Shown in pieces: positions 4,889-63,155 of a stretch of DNA of 64,000 bases. How positions within the stretch are numbered: the first letter of the stretch is position 1; every line of letters begins with the position of its first letter. The position numbers were made by a program, and so were the translations under genes. Source of the stretch: Planctomycetota bacterium (lineage in GTDB: Bacteria > Planctomycetota > PLA2 > JAEUHO01); contig CBDCTJ010000007.1 in NCBI GenBank assembly GCA_965222115.1, positions 2,688,001-2,752,000 on the forward strand. Direction: 5' to 3'. A model generated the notes under the pieces. That model did not search any database. It saw only the letters and a program-made list of their open reading frames with translations, and was not told the origin of the DNA.

Positions 4889-4968
4889 GCCGTCACCCGA
4901 TACCCGTCAGCCGACACCCGGACTCCACTGTGAGCATCCGAAGATCGATTCGCATCGAACGGTGGACG
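4889..4968 (+). repeat. solo composite repeat copy E (degenerate)
   Basis: gccgtca-cccgata-cccgtca-gccgaca-cccggactccactgtgagcatccg..gattcgc..gtggac; matches the copies at 42720, 43422 and 44129. Confidence 0.8.
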
Positions 4969-35319: not shown

Positions 35320-36321
35320 CTAGGTGAACACCGTGGGCTGATCCGTCTGGATGAATCGACCCAGATATACCAACGCGTCGTCCAATGTAACTTTCACGTC
35401 GTATTTATCGGCGGGCGGATTGAGCGTGATAACGTGAGGCGCAGCTTCTGCGTAGAATCCCTCAGTGCGTTTCACATCCTGATAACCACTTGCAAAACGT
35501 ACTTGAGTCTGCAACAAGAATGGCCCACGCCATTCGCGATCCTTCGTGTCTACGAAGAATCTTATGACAACATGGTCGGAAGCAAGATTGACCTGTTGAA
35601 CGAATGTCGCGCGCTTCCAAAACATGCGTGCCGGGCTCTCAAGACGCACTTTGGACATCCATCGATGCTCGGCAGGTCCATCCAAGAGATTCAGCAGCGT
35701 GTCTCGCTCTGCGGCCGAGCGGCACACGACCCAGCGTAAGTGCTTCAGATCGAGCTTGTCGGGAACGAGAACCTCCGAGTGCCTAGCATTCAGGATTTCG
35801 GCCCGATTGTGAGATCCAGGGCGCCCGACGCCAGAGTCGTGATACACCCATCGCCAGTTCATCGACTCCAGGAACGCGAGGCCAGATCCTCTCTCGGCAT
35901 ACTTCGTCATGCGCCCCTTCGTGAATACGACTCCACGCTGGCTCAAGATCTTCGGCGCCTGAAAGAGGAGATAGACGGGCACTGGCATATGCGCGCCACC
36001 CTGCACCATGGGACGCGGTCGAACACCTTCGTTCGCAAACTGAGTAGGCGCGCGCGGTCGAAAGTAGAGACGGACCCATCGGCGGTCCGCCTCATCTAGA
36101 TCTGCAACAAGACTTAGGTCGGCCGAGTCAACAGCGATGGTCCCAGCCAATTCCGCAGCTGCACGCGATAGAAGGCAGCCGGCGTTCAAAATTCTAGCGA
36201 TGTTTTCCACGTGGTCAGAGCGATAGACAAACATCGGCCACCAACGACGCGCCTTATCGAGAGATGCAATTGTTGGTAATCGGTCTACAAATGCTGCGGC
36301 TTCATCGGGCGTTAGGCTCAT
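35320..36321 (-). CDS. darT: DarT-like ssDNA ADP-ribosyltransferase toxin (DUF4433)
   Basis: HVENIARIL..LLSR, VRLYFRPRAPT, FTKG, RHSEVLVP (catalytic Glu). Confidence 0.8.
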   Translation of the reverse strand: MSLTPDEAAAFVDRLPTIASLDKARRWWPMFVYRSDHVENIARILNAGCLLSRAAAELAGTIAVDSADLSLVADLDEADRRWVRLYFRPRAPTQFANEGVRPRPMVQGGAHMPVPVYLLFQAPKILSQRGVVFTKGRMTKYAERGSGLAFLESMNWRWVYHDSGVGRPGSHNRAEILNARHSEVLVPDKLDLKHLRWVVCRSAAERDTLLNLLDGPAEHRWMSKVRLESPARMFWKRATFVQQVNLASDHVVIRFFVDTKDREWRGPFLLQTQVRFASGYQDVKRTEGFYAEAAPHVITLNPPADKYDVKVTLDDALVYLGRFIQTDQPTVFT

Positions 36322-36330
36322 TGCGGTGGA

Positions 36331-37227
36331 TCATTGGGTAGAAAACAGATCGGAGGACTCGTGTTGAAGTTGCGGCGCCCGAAACTGTAGGGCCTTAGCA
36401 GCATTACGCGACAGGCCCTCGTCACTCTTCGATACATGAACAACGCGTACGTATTTCAGTAACGCGAATATTGGCATGAGATATGAGACTCGCATATGGG
36501 CGGGCGCAATGTTTCGATACACAAACCCATGTTGGCGCAATTGCTGCCAGAACTCTAGGAGATCGTCTTCGCTGAATGAGTAGGTACGTCCGTTTGCGGT
36601 CACGCGAAGTGACGAGTCAGAAAATGCTGCACGAAAGATCCCTCCATTGGTTGTCTTCAGCGTAGGGTGTTTCGCCAACGCTCGACGTAGATCTCGAGAT
36701 ACTTCTTCATAAGCAAGAGAGCGCGGTTCAGACCGAAGCCAAGCGTCAATCGCTTGCTGATCCAAATGCTCAGGCGCGGACTCCTGAGGAAGGGCAGAGT
36801 GAATGAATACTGCGATCGGTAACCGCTTCAGGTACCTGTGCATGAGCGGCTCAACCTGCTCTCGATAGTTTAACTGACCATTTCCGCATCCCAGCGCAGG
36901 GAACGCTACGGAGTGAATACCCGCTTCCGCATACGTATCTGTAAACGTCTTGAGGCCAGCCTCGATGTACTCAAGGCGCGATGCTTGACGCCAGTGCTTC
37001 TTCGTTGGAAAGTTCAGAATCCACTTGTGCGCCGTCTTGTAGAGATGTAGTCCGCCAATCGTCAGCACGCCGCGTTCGCAGAGATCTTGGTACTCGCGAA
37101 ACATCTTGGGATATATTGCCTTGAATCGCTTCGCGATGCCCTTTCCCATGACCCCGACCGTGTTCACGGTGTTGACCAGGACTTGTGCGGGTGACTCGAA
37201 CAAGTCGCCTCTGACGTGGATCAACAT
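36331..37227 (-). CDS. darG: DarG-like macrodomain ADP-ribosylglycohydrolase antitoxin
   Basis: GDLFES..LVNTVNTVGVMGKGIA..FK..YP, NFPTKKHWR, PALGCGNG; AAGGA SD before ATG 37227. Confidence 0.88.
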   Translation of the reverse strand: MLIHVRGDLFESPAQVLVNTVNTVGVMGKGIAKRFKAIYPKMFREYQDLCERGVLTIGGLHLYKTAHKWILNFPTKKHWRQASRLEYIEAGLKTFTDTYAEAGIHSVAFPALGCGNGQLNYREQVEPLMHRYLKRLPIAVFIHSALPQESAPEHLDQQAIDAWLRSEPRSLAYEEVSRDLRRALAKHPTLKTTNGGIFRAAFSDSSLRVTANGRTYSFSEDDLLEFWQQLRQHGFVYRNIAPAHMRVSYLMPIFALLKYVRVVHVSKSDEGLSRNAAKALQFRAPQLQHESSDLFSTQ

Positions 37228-37517
37228 CGGTGTCTTCCTTGGAGCGGTCGTCAATCTCAGGGCGGTCCATGCTAACATAAACCTACTCCGGGGCAAGCTC
37301 CCATTTACCTCGGCTCTCAACCCATCGGGCAAGCACGCGCCGCCAGAACGTATTATACGAGTCTCTCTGAATGGTCCATCGTTCCTGATTGACGTGTGGA
37401 AGGCATATGAGAATCCGCGCACGTCCCAGTAGTCACGAGTTGGCAGGGAGTTCTCGTGAACAACTTCTCCAAGAAGGTCGGCTTCGTTTGGGGCGTGGCC
37501 GACCAACTGCGGGGGCG

Positions 37518-38303
37518 TCAGGCGAGCCTTACCAAGCGCGGCTTCGGCGGCGACAGATCCCGCACTCCTTCCAGGTGATTCACGAGCCATGCCTCTTGAA
37601 AGATGCCGCCCATGAGACTTGTTGCTTCGGCCAAAGTAGCCTCGGCCGGAGTGAAGGCTTGGTAGGTGTTCCGCACAAGCAAGATCAACGGCCCGGACCA
37701 AGGATACTGAGGTGCGCTCTTCGCCTTGGCATGCAAGCGCTCCAAGACAAGGGCGTCAAGTTGCTCATTCTTGATCTTCGTGTGCAGCGGCGATCGATCA
37801 ACATTGGCGCGAGTAGTCCACTTCTCTTTGTCGTTTATTCCAAATCGGAAGCGTGTGACGTTCCATTCCCAAATGCCATCTCTCAATCTAGCAATGAACG
37901 GGCCTGCGCCTCCCGCACGCAAGATCTCAGCGTCCAGCGCGGCAAAAAGTTCTTCCTGCCCACTCCTGCTCAAGTCGGGGAATCGCCCCGTTTGCAATTC
38001 GATATAGCCGCCTGGAGAGGCCGATCTTAGCCTCTCGACGAATCTCTGCCCCATCTGGCGCGTAGCTCGTTGAGCCGCGGCGTCCTCCGACAAAACGACG
38101 CGGGTGATCTCAGCCCCAACTTCAGTATTGTCACGTATTCGGCGTAGAACGGCATCCGGGCGTTCGCGAAATCGAATTTCGTCGTAAACGGCCTGGCCCA
38201 CCTCGTCCTCCAAGAAACGAAGGAAGAGTGCGAGCGTCTGGGACTCGTTGGTCGCTTTGTGTTCGTCGGAGAATCGTGCCATCGGTTTAGATCTTTCGAT
38301 CAT
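37518..38303 (-). CDS. hypothetical protein with PD-(D/E)XK-like motif
   Basis: RERPDAVL..VGAEIT. Confidence 0.55.
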   Translation of the reverse strand: MIERSKPMARFSDEHKATNESQTLALFLRFLEDEVGQAVYDEIRFRERPDAVLRRIRDNTEVGAEITRVVLSEDAAAQRATRQMGQRFVERLRSASPGGYIELQTGRFPDLSRSGQEELFAALDAEILRAGGAGPFIARLRDGIWEWNVTRFRFGINDKEKWTTRANVDRSPLHTKIKNEQLDALVLERLHAKAKSAPQYPWSGPLILLVRNTYQAFTPAEATLAEATSLMGGIFQEAWLVNHLEGVRDLSPPKPRLVRLA

Positions 38304-39897: not shown

Positions 39898-39957
39898 GTT
39901 GATCTTGACGTGGAACGTTGCCCGCGAGTCGGCACGGAGTAAAGAGGAAGCTCGGAT

Positions 39958-40175
39958 CGTCCACCGTTCGATGCGCAACGCGCAGATCAAAGATCTGCTG
40001 GTGCTTACTCAGGGTCTTCGCGCAAATGGCAATGCCATTTGCTCTTGACGTCCACGTTAAAGCGGCGCGAGTCGTTCATCGAATGCTCAAACCTGAGTCA
40101 GGGTAACGGGCGACGGAAACTTGGGAAACACGCCGATTGGTCCAGCGCGATCGGTACGCGCGGACGCTGCGATGG
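39958..40175 (-). repeat. gene-less degenerate copy H of the composite element with flanks
   Basis: colinear with 55929-56165, e.g. ggtgcttactcagggtcttcgcgcaaatggc..gccatttgctcttgacgtccac and tccagcgcgatcggtacgcgc. Confidence 0.85.
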
Positions 40176-42576: not shown

Positions 42577-42719
42577 GGTATCCCTACTCTACATCTCAGG
42601 GCGTTCAAGCGCCACGCCTTCAGCATGGTTGTGCGTTCGGGCACGATCTGATAGCAGAGCGCGGCTTGAGCGACTGTGCGTGGTGGAGCAGTTTGCGTTG
42701 ACGTCCGATGTCCCGCTTT

Positions 42720-42840
42720 CCCGTGACCCGTGACCCGATACCCGGACTCAAGTGTGAGCGTCCGAAATTCGATTCACGCCAGCTCGTGGACGTGGACGTG
42801 GACGTGGACGTGGACGTGGACGTGGACGTGGACGTGGACG
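42720..42840 (+). repeat. composite repeat copy A: 3 heptamers, hairpin core, (GTGGAC)x9
   Basis: cccgtga cccgtga cccgata cccggactcaagtgtgagcgtccg..gattcacgcc; GTGGAC x9 at 42786-42839. Confidence 0.95.
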
Positions 42841-42841
42841 A

Positions 42842-43216
42842 TCAAGGCTCGTCGAACCTTCGTTGAAGCACGAACAACATAGCGGCGGATCGCTCTAGTA
42901 TGTTCATGACACCTGAGATTGCGGCCTCGCTGGCGAGTCCGAGTAGTAGAGCCTGATGTAGAGCGGCAATGGCCTCGGTGCATTCGGCGTGTGCGATGTC
43001 GTACGCTTTGCGTTTCTCGGCTGGCCGTCGTTTCGAGAGTCCTTCGGCGACGTTTAGGGCAACGCTGATACTTGCGCGCCTGAGTTGATCGGCGAGCTTT
43101 GCGTGGCCACGAGGCCATGCACCGCAGATTGCTACGCACTCGACCGACGCGGCCTGCGAAGCACGGTAGACATCGAAGCGTTTGAGGTATTCGAGCGTGG
43201 AAGATGCGCTTGTCAT
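42842..43216 (-). CDS. four-helix-bundle protein (23S rRNA IVP / Avd-like)
   Basis: FDVYR, LADQLRRAS.SVALNVAEG, AYDIA..EC.E. Confidence 0.88.
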   Translation of the reverse strand: MTSASSTLEYLKRFDVYRASQAASVECVAICGAWPRGHAKLADQLRRASISVALNVAEGLSKRRPAEKRKAYDIAHAECTEAIAALHQALLLGLASEAAISGVMNILERSAAMLFVLQRRFDEP

Positions 43217-43368
43217 GATGGAACTCCAGCGTGAAGGGATCGCAAGCCGTTTGCTCGCGTGTGCCCTTCACAAAAGAGCCGAAGGCGAAGGAGGGCACAC
43301 GCGAGCGGGTCGTACAAAGGAAGCCCTGCGCAAATGCGACAACTTGTTCTCAAGCTGGAGTTCCATCA
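43216..43368 (-). promoter_or_regulatory. structured leader sequestering the SD of the four-helix gene
   Basis: 15-bp perfect IR 43216-43230/43354-43368; inner 15-bp IR 43253-43267/43292-43306. Confidence 0.8.
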
Positions 43369-43421
43369 CAAGCGGCGCCCGCGCGTACCGGTCCGGTCGC
43401 GCATGAGTTACCGATGGCCTG

Positions 43422-43536
43422 CCCGGAATCCGATACCCGTCAACCGTTACCCTTTACCCGAAACCCGTCACCCGGACTCAAGTGTGAGCGTTCGATGGTC
43501 AATTCGCGCCGGTCTAACGTGGACGTGGACGTCAAG
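43422..43536 (+). repeat. composite repeat copy B: 7 heptamers, core, (GTGGAC)x2
   Basis: cccggactcaagtgtgagcgttcg at 43471; gtggacgtggacgtcaag. Confidence 0.92.
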
Positions 43537-43576
43537 TAGCGCACTAGCCGCGTGCGGCCGATACCGGATAAACACC

Positions 43577-43731
43577 GAACTGTCTGCTGTGTGACGTGAA
43601 GGCGCACTGGGCAACACCCTTTGGGAAGTGCTACGTGCATGCCCCATTCGCCATGAGGGCGAGGGCACGCACTCGCATTCCCGCGGGTGTTTCCTCGTGG
43701 AGCTTCTCGTATGTCACACAGCAAACAGTTC
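43577..43731 (+). promoter_or_regulatory. structured leader pairing over the start codon of the four-helix gene
   Basis: 43577-43597 pairs with 43711-43731 (one G-U, one mismatch); nested aacaccc/gggtgtt, gtgcatgccc/gggcacgcac, tcgcc/ggcga. Confidence 0.75.
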
Positions 43732-44097
43732 TCGGTTTCCTCCACAGCTAGTCGGCTTGAGCGATTCGACGTGTATCGAATCGCGCGGCGTGCCGCTGCC
43801 AGTATTCACCAGCTTTGTGGATCGCTACCGCGAGGCAACGCCGAGCTTGCAAGCCAAGCTCGACGCGCCTCGACCGCCGTCGTTCTCAACATCGCTGAAG
43901 GCATCGGGCGCGCTGGCGCAGGCGCCAAGCACCGTTCGTTCTCCATCGCTCGCGGCGAGTGTGTCGAAGCCGCTGCGGCACTCGACCTCATGGATGCAAT
44001 GGGCATCCTCGCCAGCGCCCACGCCGCACCGACGCTTCGCGACCTTGACCGCGTTCGCGCGATGCTGAATGCGCTCATCCGCCGTTGGAGGGAGTGA
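43711..44097 (+). CDS. four-helix-bundle protein (23S rRNA IVP / Avd-like)
   Basis: LERFDVYR, LASQARRAS.AVVLNIAEG, FSIARGEC.E; GGAG SD. Confidence 0.9.
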   Translation: MSHSKQFSVSSTASRLERFDVYRIARRAAASIHQLCGSLPRGNAELASQARRASTAVVLNIAEGIGRAGAGAKHRSFSIARGECVEAAAALDLMDAMGILASAHAAPTLRDLDRVRAMLNALIRRWRE

Positions 44098-44128
44098 AGC
44101 GTTCCCATTTATGCACAGCGTCGCGCAC

Positions 44129-44257
44129 TCCGTCACCCATTGTCCGTCACCCGTTACCTGTCACCCGTTACCCGGACTCCAGTGTGAGCGTCCGATAGTC
44201 GATTCACGCCTGCTCGTGGACGTGGACGTGGACGTGGACGTGGACGTGGACGTGAAC
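44129..44257 (+). repeat. composite repeat copy C: 6 heptamers, core, (GTGGAC)x6
   Basis: cccggactccagtgtgagcgtccg at 44171; gattcacgcc; GTGGAC at 44216-44251. Confidence 0.95.
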
Positions 44258-44297
44258 GCGCAAATCCGTGCCGGGATCACACGTGCGATCTGCAATA

Positions 44298-44365
44298 TCC
44301 GAAAGCCGTTACCCGACACCCGTCCCCCGGACACCCAACTGAGCATCCGACGAACGATTCGCGCC
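44298..44365 (+). repeat. degenerate composite repeat copy D
   Basis: 4 heptamers, cccggac..tgagcatccg, gattcgcgcc. Confidence 0.75.
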
Positions 44366-44421
44366 GCACGCATCGATGGGTGACGGGGACTGTCCCCCCG
44401 CGCGGGGAGGCTAGGAGCCTC

Positions 44422-45354
44422 ATGATTGATCGCCGCCCTTCCGAATCCAGTACGCGCGCGCGTGTTGCGCAGCTCGATATGCGACTTGCCCTTGAGGGCA
44501 GTCAACTTGTGCACGGTGATTGTCTGGAAGTCATGCAGCGCCTGCCGGATGCGTGTTTGGATCTGATTTACATCGACCCGCCGTTTTTTACCGGCAGCAA
44601 AAAGTTGGGACCGCGGGACCTTGATGGCGAAACGCACGCGGCTCAATTCGATGATCACTGGCCCGGGGGATTGACGGCCTATTTGAGCTGGCTCATGCCA
44701 CGCATTGCAGATATGCATCGCCTGCTAAAAGACACCGGGTCCATGTATATCCATCTCGACTGGCATGCAGTGCATTACGTCAAGGTCGAGGCCGATCGCA
44801 TCTTTGGTTACGACAACTTTCTCAATGAGATTGTGTGGCTCTATGGACTGGGGGGGAGTTCCCCGCGCTACTGGCCGCGCAAGCACGACACGATTTTGTG
44901 GTACGCCAAAAATGCCAAACAACACTACTTCGTGGCCGATCGGATACCGGCCACATCGCAGCGTCTCAAGGGGCAGACCAAGAAGGCGCCCGACACGTGG
45001 GATATTCCAGCACTCAACAATATGTCTCGCGAGCGCTCGGGGTATCCCACACAGAAGCCGGAAGCATTGCTTGAACGCATTGTTCGAAGCTCGTGTCCCG
45101 AGGACGGACTGTTTGCTGACTTCTTCTGTGGCTCCGGTACGTCGTGCGTGGCCGCCGAGCGATTGGGACGCAAGTGGATCGCATCGGACACATCGAGTGA
45201 TGCGATTCAAACCACCGAGTCGCGACTGCATGCCTACCTTGCCGAACAAATTGCCAAGCGCCATCCCGGCCATTTGACGCGCGCCAAGGGGGCGACTTCG
45301 TCACGTCGAAAACGGCGCGTTCCGCTTCCGAGTTTCGTTGTCTTACGGGCGTAG
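44422..45354 (+). CDS. N6/N4 DNA methyltransferase, beta class (orphan)
   Basis: GDCL, IYIDPPF, YPTQKPE, DFFCGSGT; AGGAG SD. Confidence 0.93.
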   Translation: MIDRRPSESSTRARVAQLDMRLALEGSQLVHGDCLEVMQRLPDACLDLIYIDPPFFTGSKKLGPRDLDGETHAAQFDDHWPGGLTAYLSWLMPRIADMHRLLKDTGSMYIHLDWHAVHYVKVEADRIFGYDNFLNEIVWLYGLGGSSPRYWPRKHDTILWYAKNAKQHYFVADRIPATSQRLKGQTKKAPDTWDIPALNNMSRERSGYPTQKPEALLERIVRSSCPEDGLFADFFCGSGTSCVAAERLGRKWIASDTSSDAIQTTESRLHAYLAEQIAKRHPGHLTRAKGATSSRRKRRVPLPSFVVLRA

Positions 45355-53185: not shown

Positions 53186-53348
53186 GCGGGGTGATTCGTC
53201 GTAATTCCCGTTCCCGGTGGCACTTCCGTTTGCGCGTTGCTATCATTTGCGGCTGAAGGTGCTCACTGATTCCGGAGCGTCCGGGCACGTGTGCGCTTCC
53301 CTGGTACCTGCCGGCCATGCTCAGCACTCCGGCATTTGGGGCTCGGCT

Positions 53349-55916
53349 ATGGACTTTGGCTCGCAGACTCGCGCGCAACGCAGAACGAGAATGGTGCTCA
53401 CGCGTTTCGCACTCTTGATCATGGCACTCACGCTCCTGATGGGCGGCGAGGCACGCGCCAAGTCGACCCAAGTGGAGTATCCGGTTCGCGATGGGTTCGA
53501 GTGGCATGAGGCGGGTGAGGGACTCGTGGCCCGCGGAATCAGTTCGCTGCAGATGCACCCCAAGGCCACCGACGAGCTGTGGGCTCACGTGCATGGCGTA
53601 GGTCCGTGTGTCAGCAAGAATGGCGGCGCGTCGTGGACACTGCGCGCCAAAGGCATCCGCGAAGCATTCGACGGACCGTGCTCCATTCAGATTAGTTTCG
53701 ATCACGGCAAGCCCAAGATCATGTATTTGGTGATCGACGGCCATGTGTATCGTTCGACAGATGGCGGTGAGAGCTGGGAAGACTCGTCGAGCGGCGCGCT
53801 CGCATCGCAGCGCTGGGACAAAAAGGAGAGTCGCTCGATGATCCACTCCGTGAGCGTGGATCCCAAGAAGGGCGTTTACCTCATGGCGGGCACCCGCCCG
53901 TCGGCGCGTTTTTACGGCGGATTCTACGTATCACGCGATGCGGGGAAGAGCTGGGAGCAGGTTGCCGGAAGCAACGTGGAAGACTCCGGCCTCGGGTCGC
54001 AAACACGATTCGTGCGCCGAGATCCGCGCACGGAAAAGAACATCTGCATCGCCGGTGATCAGGGACTTTGGTACAGCGATGATCGTGGGAAGACATTCAA
54101 GCGTAACGACCCCGGGCAAGGCAAAGGCTCATCCGAGCCGCACCGCGTCTATTCCCTGAGTCGCTTTGCCAATACGCGTGACCTGTTCGCGGGCACGCCA
54201 TCCGGTGTTTGGCATTCCAAAGATGCGGGAAAGGGATGGGGCAAAAAGCCGGTTGCGCAGGGCACCGTAGTCGCCGCCGAACTCGACCCGTTTGCTCGCT
54301 CGCGCCTCATTATCGTGACGCTTGAACGCGGCATCGAGGTTAGTCAGGACGCGCGTTATAAGCAGTGGAAGCTGATCAAGGGGTCGTATCCGCCTTCGAA
54401 TCTTGGCGCACCGCCGTCCGCTGCGCAAGACGACGCGTCATCAACGGATGATGGCGAGGACAAGCCCGCTGACGATTCGGGTGACAAGAAAGGCAATAAC
54501 AAAAAGGACAGTGACGAAAAGGACCGCGACAAGAAGGGTGGCGACAAAAAAGACGATGCGGGCGATGGCTATGTCCACGCGGGCATTCGCGAGATTCTCT
54601 TTCATCCGCGCGACCGTAAGACGGTGTATTTCGCCTCACCCACCACCGGCCTACACATTAGCCGCGATAGCGGCGAGACCATTAGGCCCGTACTGCCCGG
54701 GACCATCGGGAAGGACAACGCCAACGATCGGCTGATGCCTTCCATCGCCATGCCGCTAACGCTTGTGTCCACCCATCCCGCCACCGGGTGTCGATTGGCG
54801 TTTGACACCGTCGGCGGGGCCTATCACCGCGCCACGGGTGCCGATACATGGTCGCCGCGGGGCACGATGACGACGATGGTTACGGAAATTCGCCCACTGC
54901 GCGCTGCCGGCGAGTGGCTGGCTTTGGGCGACGCGTTGCTGAAGACCGCCGACAATGGAGGCACATGGTCCGTCTTGTATGAGCCGGAGAGCATCGGCGA
55001 CCGCGTTGTGGATGTGAACATTGGCACTGACGGAGCCATGCGTATTCTGCTTGAGCGTCGCGGCAATGTTCTAACGACCACGGATGGCAAGGAGTGGACG
55101 GCCACGAAGAAGGAACCGTTCAATGGAGATACCTTTGCGCGTTCCCTTGCCGTGGATCCTGCAAACAGCGATCACATCGTCATCGCCGCAACCACCCTCA
55201 AGCCCATGTGGATGCGCAGGGATAGGGCGGGCGGTGTGTTCGAGACATGGGACGGCGGCAAGTCGTGGCAATCCATCGCGGAAGGGCTTGCACCCGAAAA
55301 GGATGACAAAGGCGCCGCGAGACTCGCGAAACACGGCTGGAATCGTGGCGTTCTAGCGCGATTTGATTTGGCCAGTGGTCTGCTGCTCTATGGCACCGCC
55401 GACGGACGAATGTATGCGCGCAAGCGTCTGCCCCCGTCAACCCCAAAGAAGGAACTCGATGCGGCCTGGTTGGATTGGGCCGAGGTGAGTCCCAATGTGG
55501 ATGGGATCGGACCGGGGACCTACATCACGGCTTCAACGTATGGAACAAGCGCTGATGGCAGCAAGAGTCACTGCGTAGTTCAGATTGCCGATGATGAGAA
55601 TGGCGCTACGCAACTGCGTGAGATCTCCGGAGCGGGCATCGCAGCACTGTGGAAGCGCGCAAAGGCGTCGGCCACGTCCGACGAAGATGAAGAAAGCGAA
55701 TCGGAAACCGCCGCCGTCTGGGGCACGATTCCCGATGTTGGGACACCACTTTCGTCAATCTCGATTCAAGTAGACAACGCTGCCAAGATCACGGCCACGG
55801 ATGCAAAGCATGCCAAGTCCGTGTTGACCTACGGTGTGCCGCCAAAGAAGCCCGACAAGGAAGATGGTGGCGACGGAGACGACAAAGACGGCGGTGAAGG
55901 GGATTCTGAAGAATAG
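53349..55916 (+). CDS. exported BNR/Ycf48/VPS10-type beta-propeller protein
   Basis: multiple S.DGG.SW (Asp-box) repeats; signal peptide. Confidence 0.85.
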   Translation: MDFGSQTRAQRRTRMVLTRFALLIMALTLLMGGEARAKSTQVEYPVRDGFEWHEAGEGLVARGISSLQMHPKATDELWAHVHGVGPCVSKNGGASWTLRAKGIREAFDGPCSIQISFDHGKPKIMYLVIDGHVYRSTDGGESWEDSSSGALASQRWDKKESRSMIHSVSVDPKKGVYLMAGTRPSARFYGGFYVSRDAGKSWEQVAGSNVEDSGLGSQTRFVRRDPRTEKNICIAGDQGLWYSDDRGKTFKRNDPGQGKGSSEPHRVYSLSRFANTRDLFAGTPSGVWHSKDAGKGWGKKPVAQGTVVAAELDPFARSRLIIVTLERGIEVSQDARYKQWKLIKGSYPPSNLGAPPSAAQDDASSTDDGEDKPADDSGDKKGNNKKDSDEKDRDKKGGDKKDDAGDGYVHAGIREILFHPRDRKTVYFASPTTGLHISRDSGETIRPVLPGTIGKDNANDRLMPSIAMPLTLVSTHPATGCRLAFDTVGGAYHRATGADTWSPRGTMTTMVTEIRPLRAAGEWLALGDALLKTADNGGTWSVLYEPESIGDRVVDVNIGTDGAMRILLERRGNVLTTTDGKEWTATKKEPFNGDTFARSLAVDPANSDHIVIAATTLKPMWMRRDRAGGVFETWDGGKSWQSIAEGLAPEKDDKGAARLAKHGWNRGVLARFDLASGLLLYGTADGRMYARKRLPPSTPKKELDAAWLDWAEVSPNVDGIGPGTYITASTYGTSADGSKSHCVVQIADDENGATQLREISGAGIAALWKRAKASATSDEDEESESETAAVWGTIPDVGTPLSSISIQVDNAAKITATDAKHAKSVLTYGVPPKKPDKEDGGDGDDKDGGEGDSEE

Positions 55917-56014
55917 AAGGGCGGTTGCTCGTCCACCCTTCGGTGCGCACTGCGCGGATCAAAGATCCGCCGGTGCTTACTCAGGGTCTTCGCGCAAATG
56001 GCAAAGCCATTTGC

Positions 56015-56113
56015 TCTTGACGTCCACGTCCACGAACCGGCGTGAATCGAATATCGGACGCTCACACTTGAGTCCGGGTGACGGATTTCGGGTAACGGGT
56101 GATGGGTGACGGG
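56015..56113 (-). repeat. composite repeat copy F: 5 heptamers, core, (GTGGAC)x2
   Basis: reverse complement cccggactcaagtgtgagcgtccgatattcgattcacgccggttcgtggacgtggacgtcaag. Confidence 0.95.
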
Positions 56114-56172
56114 AGCTTGGAATGCGCGACCGGTTGCTCCAGCGCGATCGGTACGCGCGAACGGCGCTTGTA

Positions 56173-56321
56173 ATGGAACTCCAGCTTGAGAACGGGGTGT
56201 CGCGATCACGCGGACTTCTGTTTGAGCGACCCGCTCGCGTGTGCCCTCCCTCGCCTTCGGCTTCTTTGTGAAGGGCACACGCGAGCAAACGGCTTGCGAT
56301 CCCTTCACGCTGGAGTTCCAT
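56173..56321 (+). promoter_or_regulatory. structured leader sequestering the SD of the four-helix gene
   Basis: 13-bp IR 56173-56185/56309-56321 (contains GGAG); inner 15-bp IR 56233-56247/56272-56286. Confidence 0.8.
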
Positions 56322-56322
56322 C

Positions 56323-56697
56323 ATGACAAGCGCATCTTCCACGCTCGAATACCTCAAACGCTTCGATGTCTATCGTGTGTCGCAAGCCGCGGCGGTCGAG
56401 TGCGTCGCAGTCTGCGCCGCATGGCCTCGGGGCCACGCAAAGCTTGCCGACCAACTCCGGCGCGCAAGCGCCAGCGTTGCACTCAACGTTGCAGAAGGAC
56501 TAGCGAAACGCCGCCCCGCCGAGAAGCGCAAGGCATACGACATCGCCCACGCCGAGTGCACCGAAGCGATCGCTGCGCTACATCACGCCCTTCTCCTCTG
56601 GATCGCGAGCGAGCACGCGACCTCTCGAGCCATGAATAACCTAGAGCGCGCCGCCGCCATGCTATTCGTGCTGCAACGCAAGTTTGGCGATCCTTGA
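56323..56697 (+). CDS. four-helix-bundle protein (23S rRNA IVP / Avd-like), close paralog of 42842-43216
   Basis: 124 aa; 106/124 identical to the 42842-43216 product by manual alignment. Confidence 0.88.
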   Translation: MTSASSTLEYLKRFDVYRVSQAAAVECVAVCAAWPRGHAKLADQLRRASASVALNVAEGLAKRRPAEKRKAYDIAHAECTEAIAALHHALLLWIASEHATSRAMNNLERAAAMLFVLQRKFGDP

Positions 56698-56699
56698 CG

Positions 56700-56809
56700 G
56701 TCCACGTCCACGTCCACGTCCACGTCCACGAACCGGCGCGCATCGAATATCGGACGCTCACACTTGAGCCCGGGTATCGGGGTACGGGTAACGGGTAACG
56801 GGTGACGGG
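56700..56809 (-). repeat. composite repeat copy G: 5 heptamers, core, (GTGGAC)x5
   Basis: GTCCAC x5 at 56700-56729; cggacgctcacacttgagcccggg. Confidence 0.95.
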
Positions 56810-56880
56810 CAACCGAGGCGCGCTGCTTTAGTGCGCGCGCGATTTGCACCCGGCACTATTTTGCGGGTACGGAGGCAAGA

Positions 56881-59409
56881 CTACGTCGCAACCAGCACAA
56901 CCAAGTTGCCGGAGACGACCATCGCCTTCCGAATGATTTTGCCATCCAAGTGCGAAACGACGTTGTCAATGGCCTGAGCGGCGGCAATGACCTCTTGCTC
57001 GGGCAGCTCCGCCGCGAGTTCGATCTTGCCACGCACTTTGCCGTTGATTTGTACGGCGTACTCAATGGTGTCGGCTGCCAATGCTGCGGGGTCATGGGTC
57101 GGCCATTCGCTTGTGGACGCAAGGCCCTCATAGCCCATCCGCGTCCACAACTCATCGGCGATGTGTGGCGCCATGGGGCTGAGCATGGTCAGGAATGTGC
57201 GCGCAACTTCATTGGGGATGCACGTTGATGCGCCCATGGCGTTCAGCAGGACCATCAATTTGCTCACTGCGGTGTTGTATGCGATAGCATCCATGTCGCG
57301 CGTGATTTCCGCTATCGCCGTGTGCATGGCACGTCTCAAATCGCCCTCGGCGGAACCGTCGGTACGTGGCAGTGCGTCGTGTCGCTCCGTGCCTGCCAAC
57401 AAGCGCCAGGCCCTCTGCAAGAAACGGTCGATGCCGGTGATGCCTGCGTCGGTCCAAATGACATCGGCTTCGGGCGGGCCCACGAACATGATGTAGAGCC
57501 GCAGTGCGTCGGCGCCGTGCTCCCGAACGATATTGTCGGGATTCACGACGTTGTGCTTGGACTTGCTCATCTTTTCAACCATGGCAATGGTTGGTTTTCC
57601 TGTGGCCTTGACAACGACCATGCCGTCGCGCGTCTCAAGTTGTGTCGCGGGAACGTACTTCCCCGTGTCCGGATCGCGGTGTGACGTGCACACGATCATG
57701 CCCTGGTTCACCAGGCGTTGGAAGGGCTCTTGGGTTGAGACCAATCCCAGGTCGAACAAGACCTTGTGCCAAAAGCGTGCGTAGAGCAAATGCAACACTG
57801 CGTGTTCGACACCACCCACGTAAATGTCGACGGGCATCCATTCCTTCTCAATGCTTGCATCGACAAATCGTTCGCTGTTGGTCGGATCCAAGAAGCGCAA
57901 GTAGTACCAACAACTGCCGGCCCATTGAGGCATGGTGTCGGTTTCACGCATCGCCGGTGTGCTGTCGCGCGGATCCGTGGTTTCCACCCATGCTGAAATA
58001 GCTGCCAACGGACTTTGGCCATCGCCGGTGGGCTTGTAGCTGTCCACATCGGGCAGTTGCACCGGCAGTGCGTCGTCGGGCAGGGGAACGGTGGTGCCGT
58101 CCTTACGGTGAATTACGGGAAACGGTTCGCCCCAGTAGCGTTGGCGCGAAAACAACCAGTCGCGCAGGCGGTACTGCACACGCGCACGTCCCAAGCCTTG
58201 CTCGCCCAGCCACGTGGTAATGCCCGCCTTTGCATCGGCGACCGACTTGCCGTCCCAATCACCGGAATTCACCAACGCGCCGTCACCGGCGTGGGCCTCC
58301 TTGGACAGATCGCCGCCTGAGATCACTTCCACGATTGGCAAGTCAAAGGCCTTGGCAAACTCGTAGTCTCGCTGATCGTGTCCGGGTACGGCCATCACCG
58401 CCCCGGTGCCATACGTGGCCAAGACATAGTCGGCAATCCAAATGGGCACGCGTTGTCCATTGACCGGATTGATCGCGAACGCACCGGTTGCCACGCCCGT
58501 CTTCTCTTTGACGTCGGCGATGCGATCTCGCTCCGATCGGGTCGAGGCACGCTGGACGTACTGCTCAACGTCGTCCCGCTGGGCGTCACTCACAATGTCA
58601 TCGACCAATGCGTGTTCCGGTGCCAAGACGCAAAACGTGGCGCCGAACAAGGTGTCGGGCCGTGTTGTGAACACCGTAAACGACTTGTCGTTGTGGCCTT
58701 CGACGCGAAATGTGACTTCGGCCCCTTCGCTCCGCCCGATCCACTCGCGTTGCATGCGCTTGAGCGAGTCAGGCCAATCCAAGCTGTCCAAGTCATCCAG
58801 CAGTCGATCCGCATAGGCCGTAATCTTTAGGACCCATTGGCGCATGGGGCGACGCACAACGGGATAGCCGCCCACTTCACTCTTGCCGTCAATAACCTCT
58901 TCGTTGGCCAGGACGGTGCCGAGCGCCTCGCACCAGTTGACGGGGATCTCCTGTTGATAGGCCAGGCCGCGCTCGTAGAGCTTCAAAAAGATCCACTGCG
59001 TCCAGCGGTAGTAGTTGGGATCGGTGGTGTTGATCTCGCGCGACCAGTCGTAGCTATAGCCCATACGCTTGAGCTGTTTACGAAAGGTCGCCACGTTGCG
59101 TTCGACGGCTACACGAGGATGGACTTCGTTCTTAATCGCATATTGCTCAGCGGGCAAACCAAACGCATCCCAACCCATAGGATGCAAGACGCGAAAGCCT
59201 TTGAGCCGGTAGTAGCGGCTCATGATGTCGGAAATGGTGTAGTTCTCGACGTGACCGACGTGGAGTCCCTTGCCCGACGGGTAGGGAAACATGTCGAGAA
59301 TGTACTTCTTCGGCTTCGAAGAATCTTCCTCGACACGAAACGCATCGTCGTCTTCCCATCGCTGCTGCCAAGTTGGCTCCACGATGGACGGGTCATAGGA
59401 CTGGCTCAC
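56881..59409 (-). CDS. leuS: leucine--tRNA ligase
   Basis: MFPYPSG.GLHVGH, FTTRPDT, RDWLFSRQRYWG, KMSKS. Confidence 0.98.
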   Translation of the reverse strand: MSQSYDPSIVEPTWQQRWEDDDAFRVEEDSSKPKKYILDMFPYPSGKGLHVGHVENYTISDIMSRYYRLKGFRVLHPMGWDAFGLPAEQYAIKNEVHPRVAVERNVATFRKQLKRMGYSYDWSREINTTDPNYYRWTQWIFLKLYERGLAYQQEIPVNWCEALGTVLANEEVIDGKSEVGGYPVVRRPMRQWVLKITAYADRLLDDLDSLDWPDSLKRMQREWIGRSEGAEVTFRVEGHNDKSFTVFTTRPDTLFGATFCVLAPEHALVDDIVSDAQRDDVEQYVQRASTRSERDRIADVKEKTGVATGAFAINPVNGQRVPIWIADYVLATYGTGAVMAVPGHDQRDYEFAKAFDLPIVEVISGGDLSKEAHAGDGALVNSGDWDGKSVADAKAGITTWLGEQGLGRARVQYRLRDWLFSRQRYWGEPFPVIHRKDGTTVPLPDDALPVQLPDVDSYKPTGDGQSPLAAISAWVETTDPRDSTPAMRETDTMPQWAGSCWYYLRFLDPTNSERFVDASIEKEWMPVDIYVGGVEHAVLHLLYARFWHKVLFDLGLVSTQEPFQRLVNQGMIVCTSHRDPDTGKYVPATQLETRDGMVVVKATGKPTIAMVEKMSKSKHNVVNPDNIVREHGADALRLYIMFVGPPEADVIWTDAGITGIDRFLQRAWRLLAGTERHDALPRTDGSAEGDLRRAMHTAIAEITRDMDAIAYNTAVSKLMVLLNAMGASTCIPNEVARTFLTMLSPMAPHIADELWTRMGYEGLASTSEWPTHDPAALAADTIEYAVQINGKVRGKIELAAELPEQEVIAAAQAIDNVVSHLDGKIIRKAMVVSGNLVVLVAT

Positions 59410-63011: not shown

Positions 63012-63066
63012 TGCTGAGTCTTTGCTGATAGGCTGAGCATAAAAATCTACTACTTGCAACGCCTTT

Positions 63067-63155
63067 GCCGATATTCGTCACCCGGACTCAAGAGTGAGCG
63101 ATCGGTGATCGATTCACGCCACAACATCAAGAGCAAATGGCTTCGACATTTGCGC
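63067..63155 (+). repeat. solo composite repeat copy I
   Basis: cccggactcaagagtgagcgatcgg..gattcacgcc..tcaagagcaaatgg..catttgc. Confidence 0.88.

Follow-up and report, generated by a model that had tools for sequence, protein, structure and literature searches.

Organization of the cassette at the BNR–leuS junction

The DNA analyzed here, called the window, is a stretch of 64,000 nt from a Planctomycetota bacterium, corresponding to C7:2688001-2752000 (contig C7) of a 4.55-Mb, 7-contig genome. Its subject is a small gene cassette, copy B, located between two convergent genes, a BNR/sortilin-type gene (53217-55916, plus strand) and leuS (56881-59409, minus strand). Copy B belongs, as an intact member, to a family of small gene cassettes bracketed by a repeat, R. 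An 86-nt dispersed repeat containing two short hairpins, the T module (55929-56014, plus), begins 13 nt past the BNR stop codon and is followed by the 5' copy of R (56015-56113, plus), which is composed of (GTCCAC)2, a 45-nt core at 56034-56078 and a GGGNNNN array extending to 56113; the nhmmer profile match to this core is C7:2744035-2744077. The conserved and structured 5' leader (56114-56322, plus) contains an outer rod, in which 56165-56185 faces 56309-56332, and an inner hairpin at 56233-56286. It leads into a gene of type 1 (56323-56697, plus) for a PF05635/TIGR02436 four-helix-bundle protein of 124 aa with a pI of 9.4. The 3' copy of R (56700-56817, plus) starts with (GTCCAC)5 only 2 nt past the stop codon and continues through a core at 56730-56774 into a G-tract array ending at ~56817.

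The flanking repeats, compared over 56020-56113 and 56716-56809, are direct and 89% identical with a start-to-start distance of 696 nt, the spacing that a preliminary description of this DNA had given for the repeat cores. The outer edges of the unit, where a target-site duplication was sought, are variable microsatellite-like arrays. The unit has a GC content of 62% compared to 59% for the window, and its composition is native.

A homologous unit, copy A, lies on the window's minus strand (42714-43526) with the same order of R, leader, type-1 gene (42842-43216) and R. MAFFT alignment of 55900-56900 (plus) with 42620-43640 (minus) showed homology between 56015-56817 and 42714-43526 through repeat, leader, gene and repeat, beginning at the (GTCCAC) run (~56015 in copy B, ~43526 in copy A) and stopping after the G-tract run (~56817 and ~42714), with alignment noise beyond. 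The preliminary description had identified 56015-56809 as the reverse-complement counterpart of 42720-43536, in agreement with the alignment except for these limits. Additionally, a repeat search of the window recovered 42809-43393 and 56146-56730 as an inverted pair of 585 nt with 84% identity. Both open reading frames (ORFs), 56323-56697 on the plus strand and 42842-43216 on the minus strand, match PF05635 with E values of ~1e-15, and their proteins align without gaps and are identical at 106 of 124 residues, the count reported earlier. The gene calls likewise agree with the earlier placement of copy B between convergent BNR and leuS genes. The claim that homology excludes the neighboring genes holds not only for the alignment of copies A and B but for all 10 type-1 units of the genome, in which homology stops at R. 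Two of the earlier statements required revision: the unit had been drawn from 55929, and 55929-56014 is the separate T module, absent from copy A; what had been called a second copy is one of 10 type-1 units, which are accompanied by 8 units of a second subtype.

The cassette family and its repeats

PF05635 gave 18 matches in the genome, all above the cut-off, comprising 10 type-1 and 8 type-2 genes. All 18 are intact and are distributed over 14 loci, each ~0.5 Mb or less from the terminus located by GC skew. The type-2 protein (128 aa) is 44% identical to the type-1 protein (124 aa). According to blastn, the 10 full leader-plus-gene type-1 units all lie on C7 between 2.274 and 2.848 Mb, and truncated type-1 leaders are present at C7:2443811-2443954 and C7:2728133-2728166. 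The type-1 ORF is intact in 10 of 10 units, one of which is without its stop codon and is extended by 5 codons. The closest paralog of copy B is the unit at C7:2680842 (86% over the coding sequence, CDS) and not copy A. In four loci a type-2 gene divergently adjoins a type-1 gene. One of these is the copy A locus, where the type-2 cassette (43527-44097, plus) consists of a leader at 43527-43710 and a gene at 43711-44097 encoding 128 aa with a pI of 11.2. This cassette is closed by a third R (44128-44258, minus), and a further degenerate R is found at 44299-44377. Within 44299-45354, the start of an N6/N4 DNA methylase gene (PF01555) coincides with this degenerate R.

Across the family, R has the form (GTCCAC)2-33, 45-nt core and a GGGNNNN run of 24-59 nt. 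A profile search identified 41 R cores, 39 of them in C7:2.275-2.936 Mb and 2 on contig C3. The whole genome contains 27 (GTCCAC)n runs with n of at least 3 and 35 runs of at least 4 G3N4 units, every one in an R locus (C7:2.27-2.94 Mb or the two C3 sites). All 35 G3N4 runs are intergenic and inside R and measure 24-52 nt, with at least 4 GGG tracts at a 7-nt period and in variable number; a run of this sequence could form a G-quadruplex. Very long perfect (GTCCAC) runs also occur, with 33 units at C7:2669555-2669752 and 13 at C3:354437. R folded no better than shuffled sequence in 7 of 7 copies (z -0.6 to +2.3).

R stands on both sides of 17 of the 18 cassettes, all R copies within one locus share the same orientation, and their number per locus usually equals the number of cassettes plus one. 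Type-1 genes are oriented along R and type-2 genes against it. There are also ~16 gene-less R or T-R loci, two of which retain fragments of a type-1 leader. R is thus more than the end of a unit: it is an independent element, which occurs at these gene-less loci and also brackets type-2 genes, whose orientation relative to it is reversed. A short motif resembling ATTTGC..CCCGGCAC, present at 56846-56866 and 44270-44290 of the window, recurs immediately outside R in several units.

The T module has 35 blastn matches in the genome, with C1 and C3 among the contigs, where it lies away from R. It precedes R in 4 of the 10 type-1 units and in several gene-less loci. Within the window, a gene-less remnant at 39957-40166 (plus; repeat pairs of 92% and 91%) consists of T, R and the initial ~50 nt of a type-1 leader and has the same exceptional orientation as copy B. 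Repeat search and core profile search together identified two further solo copies, an R at 4890-4968 (minus) and an R core at 63059-63155 (minus) preceded by the second hairpin of T.

Insertion at the BNR–leuS junction

In order to determine the state of this site elsewhere, 40 related genomes were compared. A BNR ortholog was found in 19 of them, all of the same family, and leuS was also visible in 9 of these loci; in the remaining 10, the 1.5-kb flank or the contig ended before any neighbor. In the 9 informative loci the two genes are convergent, with a stop-to-stop spacer of 4-185 nt compared to 964 nt here, and none of the 9 spacers contains a PF05635 gene or a G- or C-tract run. The tight junction in 9 of 9 relatives indicates that T and the cassette were inserted here, and on this comparison of gene neighborhoods the BNR–leuS copy is an insertion specific to this lineage into an ancestrally tight junction. 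The preliminary description had interpreted the unit as a module with repeat-defined ends that had moved or been duplicated. Its modular nature and its insertion at this site stand, but it did not arise as a duplicate of copy A, and the repeats are an independent element.

Protein family, selection and age

The copy B protein matched PF05635 with 57.7 bits (cut-off 33.8, E 1.5e-15) over profile positions 2-104 of 106 and TIGR02436 with 54.9 bits (cut-off 24), in addition to a sequence match to PDB 2gsc (E 0.0026). On the basis of these matches it is assigned to the PF05635/TIGR02436 family (S23p, Avd family). Outside this genome, the best protein identity was 54% over a short segment in the genome_contigs collection and 46% in the related genomes, none of which is of the same genus; the leading metagenome matches reached 48% identity and were higher only over short segments. 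The proteins of the family are basic, with pI values of 8.9-11.2. PADLOC matched neither the type-1 nor the type-2 protein, and tblastn of a plasmid collection with the type-2 protein found no match. According to the literature, PF05635 includes Avd, the reverse-transcriptase cofactor of diversity-generating retroelements (DGRs) (PMC10053308), and a four-helix-bundle protein of the family forms a pentameric ring (PMC4990558). By homology, we infer that the cassette protein would be a ring-forming nucleic-acid binder, which may act on its own repeats or leader.

The preliminary description had suggested that the intact ORF is under selection, and the substitution rates between copies A and B (dN 0.079, dS 0.747) bear this out. 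Among the type-1 copies, calculated by the Nei-Gojobori method, the 45 pairs have dS values of 0.08-1.63 (mean 0.68) with a mean dN/dS of 0.12, and their CDSs differ at 14-24% of positions. The 28 type-2 pairs have dS values of 0.40-0.91 and a mean dN/dS of 0.08. The copies are old paralogs kept by strong purifying selection on protein and leader and are not the result of a recent duplication.

The structured leader

The copy B leader has a minimum free energy of -127.1 kcal/mol (z -8.1), and none of 200 shuffled sequences was equally stable. The RNAalifold consensus fold of the 10 type-1 leaders contains 68 pairs and joins 56165-56185 to 56309-56332, so placing the GGAG ribosome-binding site in a paired state in 10 of 10 copies. 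The ATG falls in a bulge of 4 nt that separates two helices, and pairing resumes at codons 2-4. The last 160 nt of the leader have a mean identity of 88% among type-1 copies, compared to 67% at third codon positions. Because compensatory changes occur in only 3 of the 68 pairs, the support for the rod comes from conservation and stability and not from covariation. The type-2 leader, which is unrelated in sequence, is also a rod with its AUG inside the stem (z -6.1). No Rfam family reached the gathering score in the window, and the unit itself gave only a chance-level miRNA match (E 0.73). A possible upstream ORF in the leader (ATG at 56174) was rejected as coding, as single-base indels in other copies break its frame.

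On this fold, the leader would block translation, with the ribosome-binding site paired and the start codon clamped. Such a lock would be lifted by RNA processing, for instance through cleavage of the RNase III type comparable to that of 23S rRNA intervening sequences, or by an internal transcription start, and it would insulate the gene from read-through of its convergent neighbors.

Position near the terminus and strand polarity

The cumulative GC skew of C7 has its minimum at ~0.58 Mb and its maximum at 2.76-2.774 Mb, and the window ends ~22 kb short of the probable terminus. Of the 31 R cores left of the skew switch, 28 lie on the minus strand, and 8 of the 8 to its right lie on the plus strand; the two C3 cores are likewise plus-strand, on a contig whose skew is negative. 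In total, the G-rich strand is on the lagging strand in 38 of the 41 cores. Nine of 10 type-1 genes face replication head-on, 8 of 8 type-2 genes are co-directional with it, and T near the terminus mostly obeys the same strand rule as R. The three exceptions are both R copies of copy B and the remnant at window position 40063, so that copy B is inverted relative to the local orientation rule as well as relative to copy A. This polarity may be a passive result of local spread combined with inversions symmetric about the terminus.

Spread of the cassettes

Neither a transposase nor an adjacent reverse transcriptase or integrase was found with the cassettes. The relationships among the copies are mosaic. 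The nearest neighbor of copies A and B changes segment by segment, and the four-gamete test is violated by 50% of informative site pairs, with greater compatibility between neighboring than between distant sites (permutation p 0.02). The R cores on the two sides of one cassette resemble each other slightly more than other pairs do (0.78 versus 0.73, p 0.017, the pairs not being independent), and the 5' and 3' cores of copy B, at 93% identity (0.93), are the most similar of 13 bracketing pairs. The mosaicism, the cassettes-plus-one count and the gene-less sites fit, without proving, a gain and exchange of cassettes by recombination at R. Judging from anatomy alone, this is the most likely route of spread. 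Host recombination at the cores and at the long, perfect runs of the hexamer would bring in or exchange cassettes, which would need no transposase of their own, and a circle carrying one R and the gene would, upon integration at a solo R, yield exactly the order R-gene-R. The explanation we favor, with confidence somewhat better than even, combines the observed family anatomy with spread by recombination at R, a translational lock in the leader and a ring protein that binds nucleic acids.

Several results weigh against this explanation. Recombination at R does not predict the orientation rule seen in 38 of 41 cores and needs symmetric inversions as an extra assumption. No recombination intermediate, empty/filled polymorphism or circle was seen among the genomes and metagenomes compared, which include no close relative. 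Recombination between distant R copies of the same orientation would remove essential genes, so that free host recombination at R should come at a cost. In the two leader remnants, loss took place through imprecise deletion and not through clean excision between R copies, and the high dS values indicate no recent spread. For the leader, compensatory change is limited to the 3 of 68 pairs noted above, and a scan of 55850-56900 for sigma-70-type promoters gave 0 sites, although promoters of Planctomycetes may differ.

The strand polarity would be explained if the cassettes were non-autonomous elements moved in trans by an enzyme acting on single-stranded DNA at the replication fork, of the IS200/IS605 type or of the type that pairs repetitive extragenic palindromic (REP) sequences with REP-associated tyrosine transposases (RAYTs), with R as the recognized end. 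The 38 of 41 R cores on the same strand with respect to the lagging strand, the flip at the skew switch at ~2.774 Mb and the presence of 2 Y1_Tnp matches in the genome are in line with this mechanism. However, neither Y1_Tnp gene (C7 1.07 and 1.41 Mb) has R nearby, and R, which folds no better than shuffled sequence in 7 of 7 copies, is without the hairpin that such enzymes use. The R copies flank as direct repeats rather than as left and right ends, and the copies are old. Moreover, in two relatives rich in PF05635, G026 and G013, the strand of the arrays next to PF05635 genes did not follow the local 20-kb GC skew, a noisy proxy, in any consistent way (~7 loci for and ~7 against). We consider mobilization in trans unlikely.

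The same polarity could be read as function, with R and the basic proteins forming a chromosome-organizing system of the terminus in which R copies are polar sites bound by PF05635 rings, comparable in layout to Ter/Tus, KOPS or matS/MatP, and the gene copies are kept for local action. All 18 genes, 27 hexamer arrays and 35 G3N4 arrays are confined to C7:2.27-2.94 Mb or the two C3 sites, the polarity flips at the skew maximum, and the proteins are basic (pI 8.9-11.2). The survival of 18 near-redundant genes intact despite a dS of ~0.6 also suggests dosage or action in cis. However, PF05635 is patchy among the relatives (14 of 40 at E values up to 0.001), and so cannot be a core chromosome function, and G026 and G013 show no polarity by local skew. 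The skew switch does not divide the region symmetrically, the rule is broken by three R copies, among them both of copy B, and inversions symmetric about the terminus would yield the same pattern passively. A terminus organizer is for these reasons quite unlikely.

Spread through RNA, in which the structured transcript would be copied by a reverse transcriptase of the genome with the Avd-like protein as cofactor and the cDNA integrated at R, is decidedly improbable. The relation of the protein to Avd, the DGR cofactor (PMC10053308), lends this idea some appeal, and purifying selection would be expected if the protein were needed for spread. Of the 7 RVT_1 matches in the genome, one is situated 1.4 kb away from the C7:2634310 cassette, but none lies in the window or beside the other 17 of 18 cassettes. 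The upstream R, which would be outside or at the very start of the transcript, has been copied with the unit, and the high dS speaks against ongoing retro-copying. Six of the RVT_1 matches (C3:81659; C7:1984989, 1004494, 881482, 2631845 and 3037923) fall into two groups of three, within which the scores are the same or nearly so, with ORFs of 515 and 445 aa, and look like multi-copy group II introns.

Tyrosine recombinases (PF00589) also have 7 matches in the genome, none beside an intact cassette. One of them, at C7:2445157-2445594 in a frame of 487 aa, lies ~1.2 kb from a truncated, oppositely oriented T-R-leader remnant (2443637-2443954), and an integrated element at this position may have disrupted that cassette.

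Support for the assembly at copy B came from short-read contigs of 4 runs of one study, possibly of the source sample. The repeats interrupt these contigs; pieces specific to this copy, with 0 differences and present in up to 4 runs, cover 55000-56001, 55999-56084, 56055-56311, 56343-56691 and 56740-57800, thereby extending from BNR into T, from the R core into the leader, over the CDS and from the 3' R core through leuS, and in 3 runs the 3' R is joined to leuS in a single contig. No reliable contig in the 4 runs joined BNR to leuS without the unit, the only candidate having 21 nt on its shorter side. Although the repeat-rich region and the contig breaks at repeats could be cited for it, the explanation is almost certainly neither ordinary segmental duplication nor an artifact of assembly, given the unrelated flanking genes of the copies, the copy-specific contigs with 0 differences and the 14-24% divergence over the CDS.

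Occurrence beyond this genome

PF05635 matches (E values up to 0.001) were found in 14 of the 40 relatives, with 21 in G026 and 7 each in G013 and G038. Twenty 20-kb loci of G026 and G013 contain 62 G/C-tract runs, of which 44, in 17 of the 20 loci, are no more than 600 nt away from a PF05635 match, and the run density near PF05635 is 1.31 versus 0.05 per kb, a 26-fold enrichment in which paralogs within one genome are not independent counts. ACGTTC-type hexamer runs stand beside the G/C-tract runs in these loci. In G026 many PF05635 matches are less than 1 kb from contig ends, which suggests that such repeats break assemblies. Three G026 loci (L091, L094 and L097; e.g. C68:62499-63653) contain divergent PF05635 pairs with runs between and around them, and as G026 belongs to a different family, the pair arrangement may be old.

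Among 43 loci with upstream sequence in genome_contigs, a sense-strand G-tract run lies within 700 nt upstream in 11, all from Polyangiaceae, with an upstream sense-strand run density of 0.50 versus 0.034 per kb (15-fold). In one Polyangiaceae example, a long hairpin comes after (GGGAGC)n, and GGAGG is paired at the base of this hairpin. In the metagenomes, a sense-strand run was found in 11 of 57 loci (0.39 versus 0.033 per kb, 12-fold), with units such as GGGAGC, GGGAAC, GGGCAC, GGGATGC and others that vary by lineage. The stretch between run and gene had z values of -2.7 or lower in 7 of 9 further loci (30 shuffles each). An Rfam search of 12 related loci found no family at the gathering score except a tRNA. 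Across the 40 relatives, G-tract runs and PF05635 did not co-vary, using a fixed pattern that also matches irregular G-rich stretches and homopolymers in GC-rich genomes. This crude pattern is frequent in relatives without PF05635, so the runs do not depend on the protein.

We tentatively put forward that a PF05635 gene, a sense-strand G-tract run and a rod-like leader constitute a conserved three-part module present in several phyla and representing an undescribed class of cassette, a possibility that we consider doubtful at present. Most sampled PF05635 loci lack a run, and the G-rich pattern is common in relatives without PF05635; both counts speak against it. In the full-text literature no description of PF05635 cassettes with flanking arrays was found, with subscription journals and supplementary files outside the scope of the search. 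By analogy with known systems, such a module may work in either of two ways. The ring protein may read GGG tracts or quadruplexes of its own locus in a TRAP-like manner, for autoregulation or local handling of DNA or RNA. Alternatively, the G-tract run may drive recombination that moves cassettes and exchanges sequence, as at Neisseria pilE.

Comparison with known systems

At Neisseria pilE, gene conversion is stimulated by a G-quadruplex (G4), a case cited in PMC4692102. The likeness lies in a G4 motif beside a multi-copy, sequence-exchanging gene family, and the analogy applies to the G-tract run only. In the insertion sequences (IS) IS10 and IS50, fold-back of transcripts that start outside the element inhibits translation of the transposase. 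Here too a stem would hide the start region in outside transcripts, and the analogy applies to the leader only. The unit itself is probably not an IS element: direct repeats form its ends, and it contains no transposase.

As in S23p, XCC0516 (PDB 2GSC) and Avd, a small basic PF05635 protein is encoded, here in 18 copies and in a fixed repeat-leader architecture. Membership in a DGR was rejected: there is no RVT_1 in the window or by copy B, and the repeat search gave no pair resembling template and variable repeats at the unit. The intervening sequences of 23S rRNA that carry an S23p ORF in Leptospira, Coxiella and Xanthomonas have long been suspected of being selfish or mobile, and the ORF of the Coxiella intervening sequence was reported as decaying (PMC4990558). 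They share with the cassettes a size of 0.4-0.8 kb, a PF05635 ORF and a long near-perfect RNase III-type stem (PMC4990558). In contrast to them, the stem of the cassettes lies ahead of the ORF, with the ribosome-binding site and start codon inside it instead of the whole ORF, and the units lie between protein genes, with direct rather than inverted flanking repeats and intact, selected ORFs. An assignment to this class was rejected for copy B, since the window contains no rRNA or Rfam family, the unit lies between BNR and leuS and the flanking repeats are direct.

The G-tract runs correspond to the class of GGGNATC and GGGGAYT heptamers of Xanthomonas and Nostoc, which are intergenic, comprise 2-26 units of variable length and form quadruplexes in vitro (Rehm et al. 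2015, PMC4692102). The authors describe these repeats as genome-wide, without a tie to a gene class and of unknown function (PMC4692102). Both kinds have one GGG per unit at a 7-nt period, and both are intergenic and variable. Here, unlike in Xanthomonas and Nostoc, every run is within R, tied to PF05635 cassettes, placed beside a hexamer run and core, and confined to the terminus region.

With integron cassettes and attC sites the units share a small gene between site-like repeats, a repeat number of cassettes plus one, two-cassette arrays and gene-less sites. They differ in having no adjoining integrase, no attC-like hairpin in R, a cargo of one gene family and dispersed loci. The integron reading was rejected on the absence of a hairpin in 7 of 7 R copies and on the 7 PF00589 matches, none beside an intact cassette. 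R is also short, abundant, intergenic and without a coding gene of its own, like REP sequences, BIMEs (bacterial interspersed mosaic elements), REPINs and miniature inverted-repeat transposable elements. In contrast to these, it is non-palindromic, is without terminal inverted repeats or a RAYT neighbor, and contains two microsatellite-like runs. A REP/RAYT system was rejected on the missing hairpin signal and on the location of Y1_Tnp at C7 1.07/1.41 Mb, with the R cores at C7:2.27-2.94 Mb or on C3.

To our knowledge, stand-alone PF05635 proteins are very common in bacteria and have no known role outside DGRs. The S23p intervening sequences have been suspected of mobility for thirty years without a mechanism, and this genome provides a natural series of 18 intact, selected copies in a fixed architecture, with gene-less sites, remnants and at least one datable insertion into a conserved junction. 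The PF05635 genes are here physically linked to simple repeats of the G-quadruplex type, and a strikingly conserved leader hides the translation start. If true, either form of the three-part module would give a first functional context to orphan stand-alone Avd-like proteins and to bacterial G4 heptamer repeats.

Other features of the window and genome

Adjacent DarT-family (PF14487) and Macro-domain genes at 35320-37701 of the window (minus) have the appearance of a DarTG-type toxin-antitoxin or defense pair. Finally, contig C6 (48,116 nt) has a GC content of 39.7%, compared to 55-59% in the other six contigs, and is possibly a plasmid, a phage or a binning contaminant.

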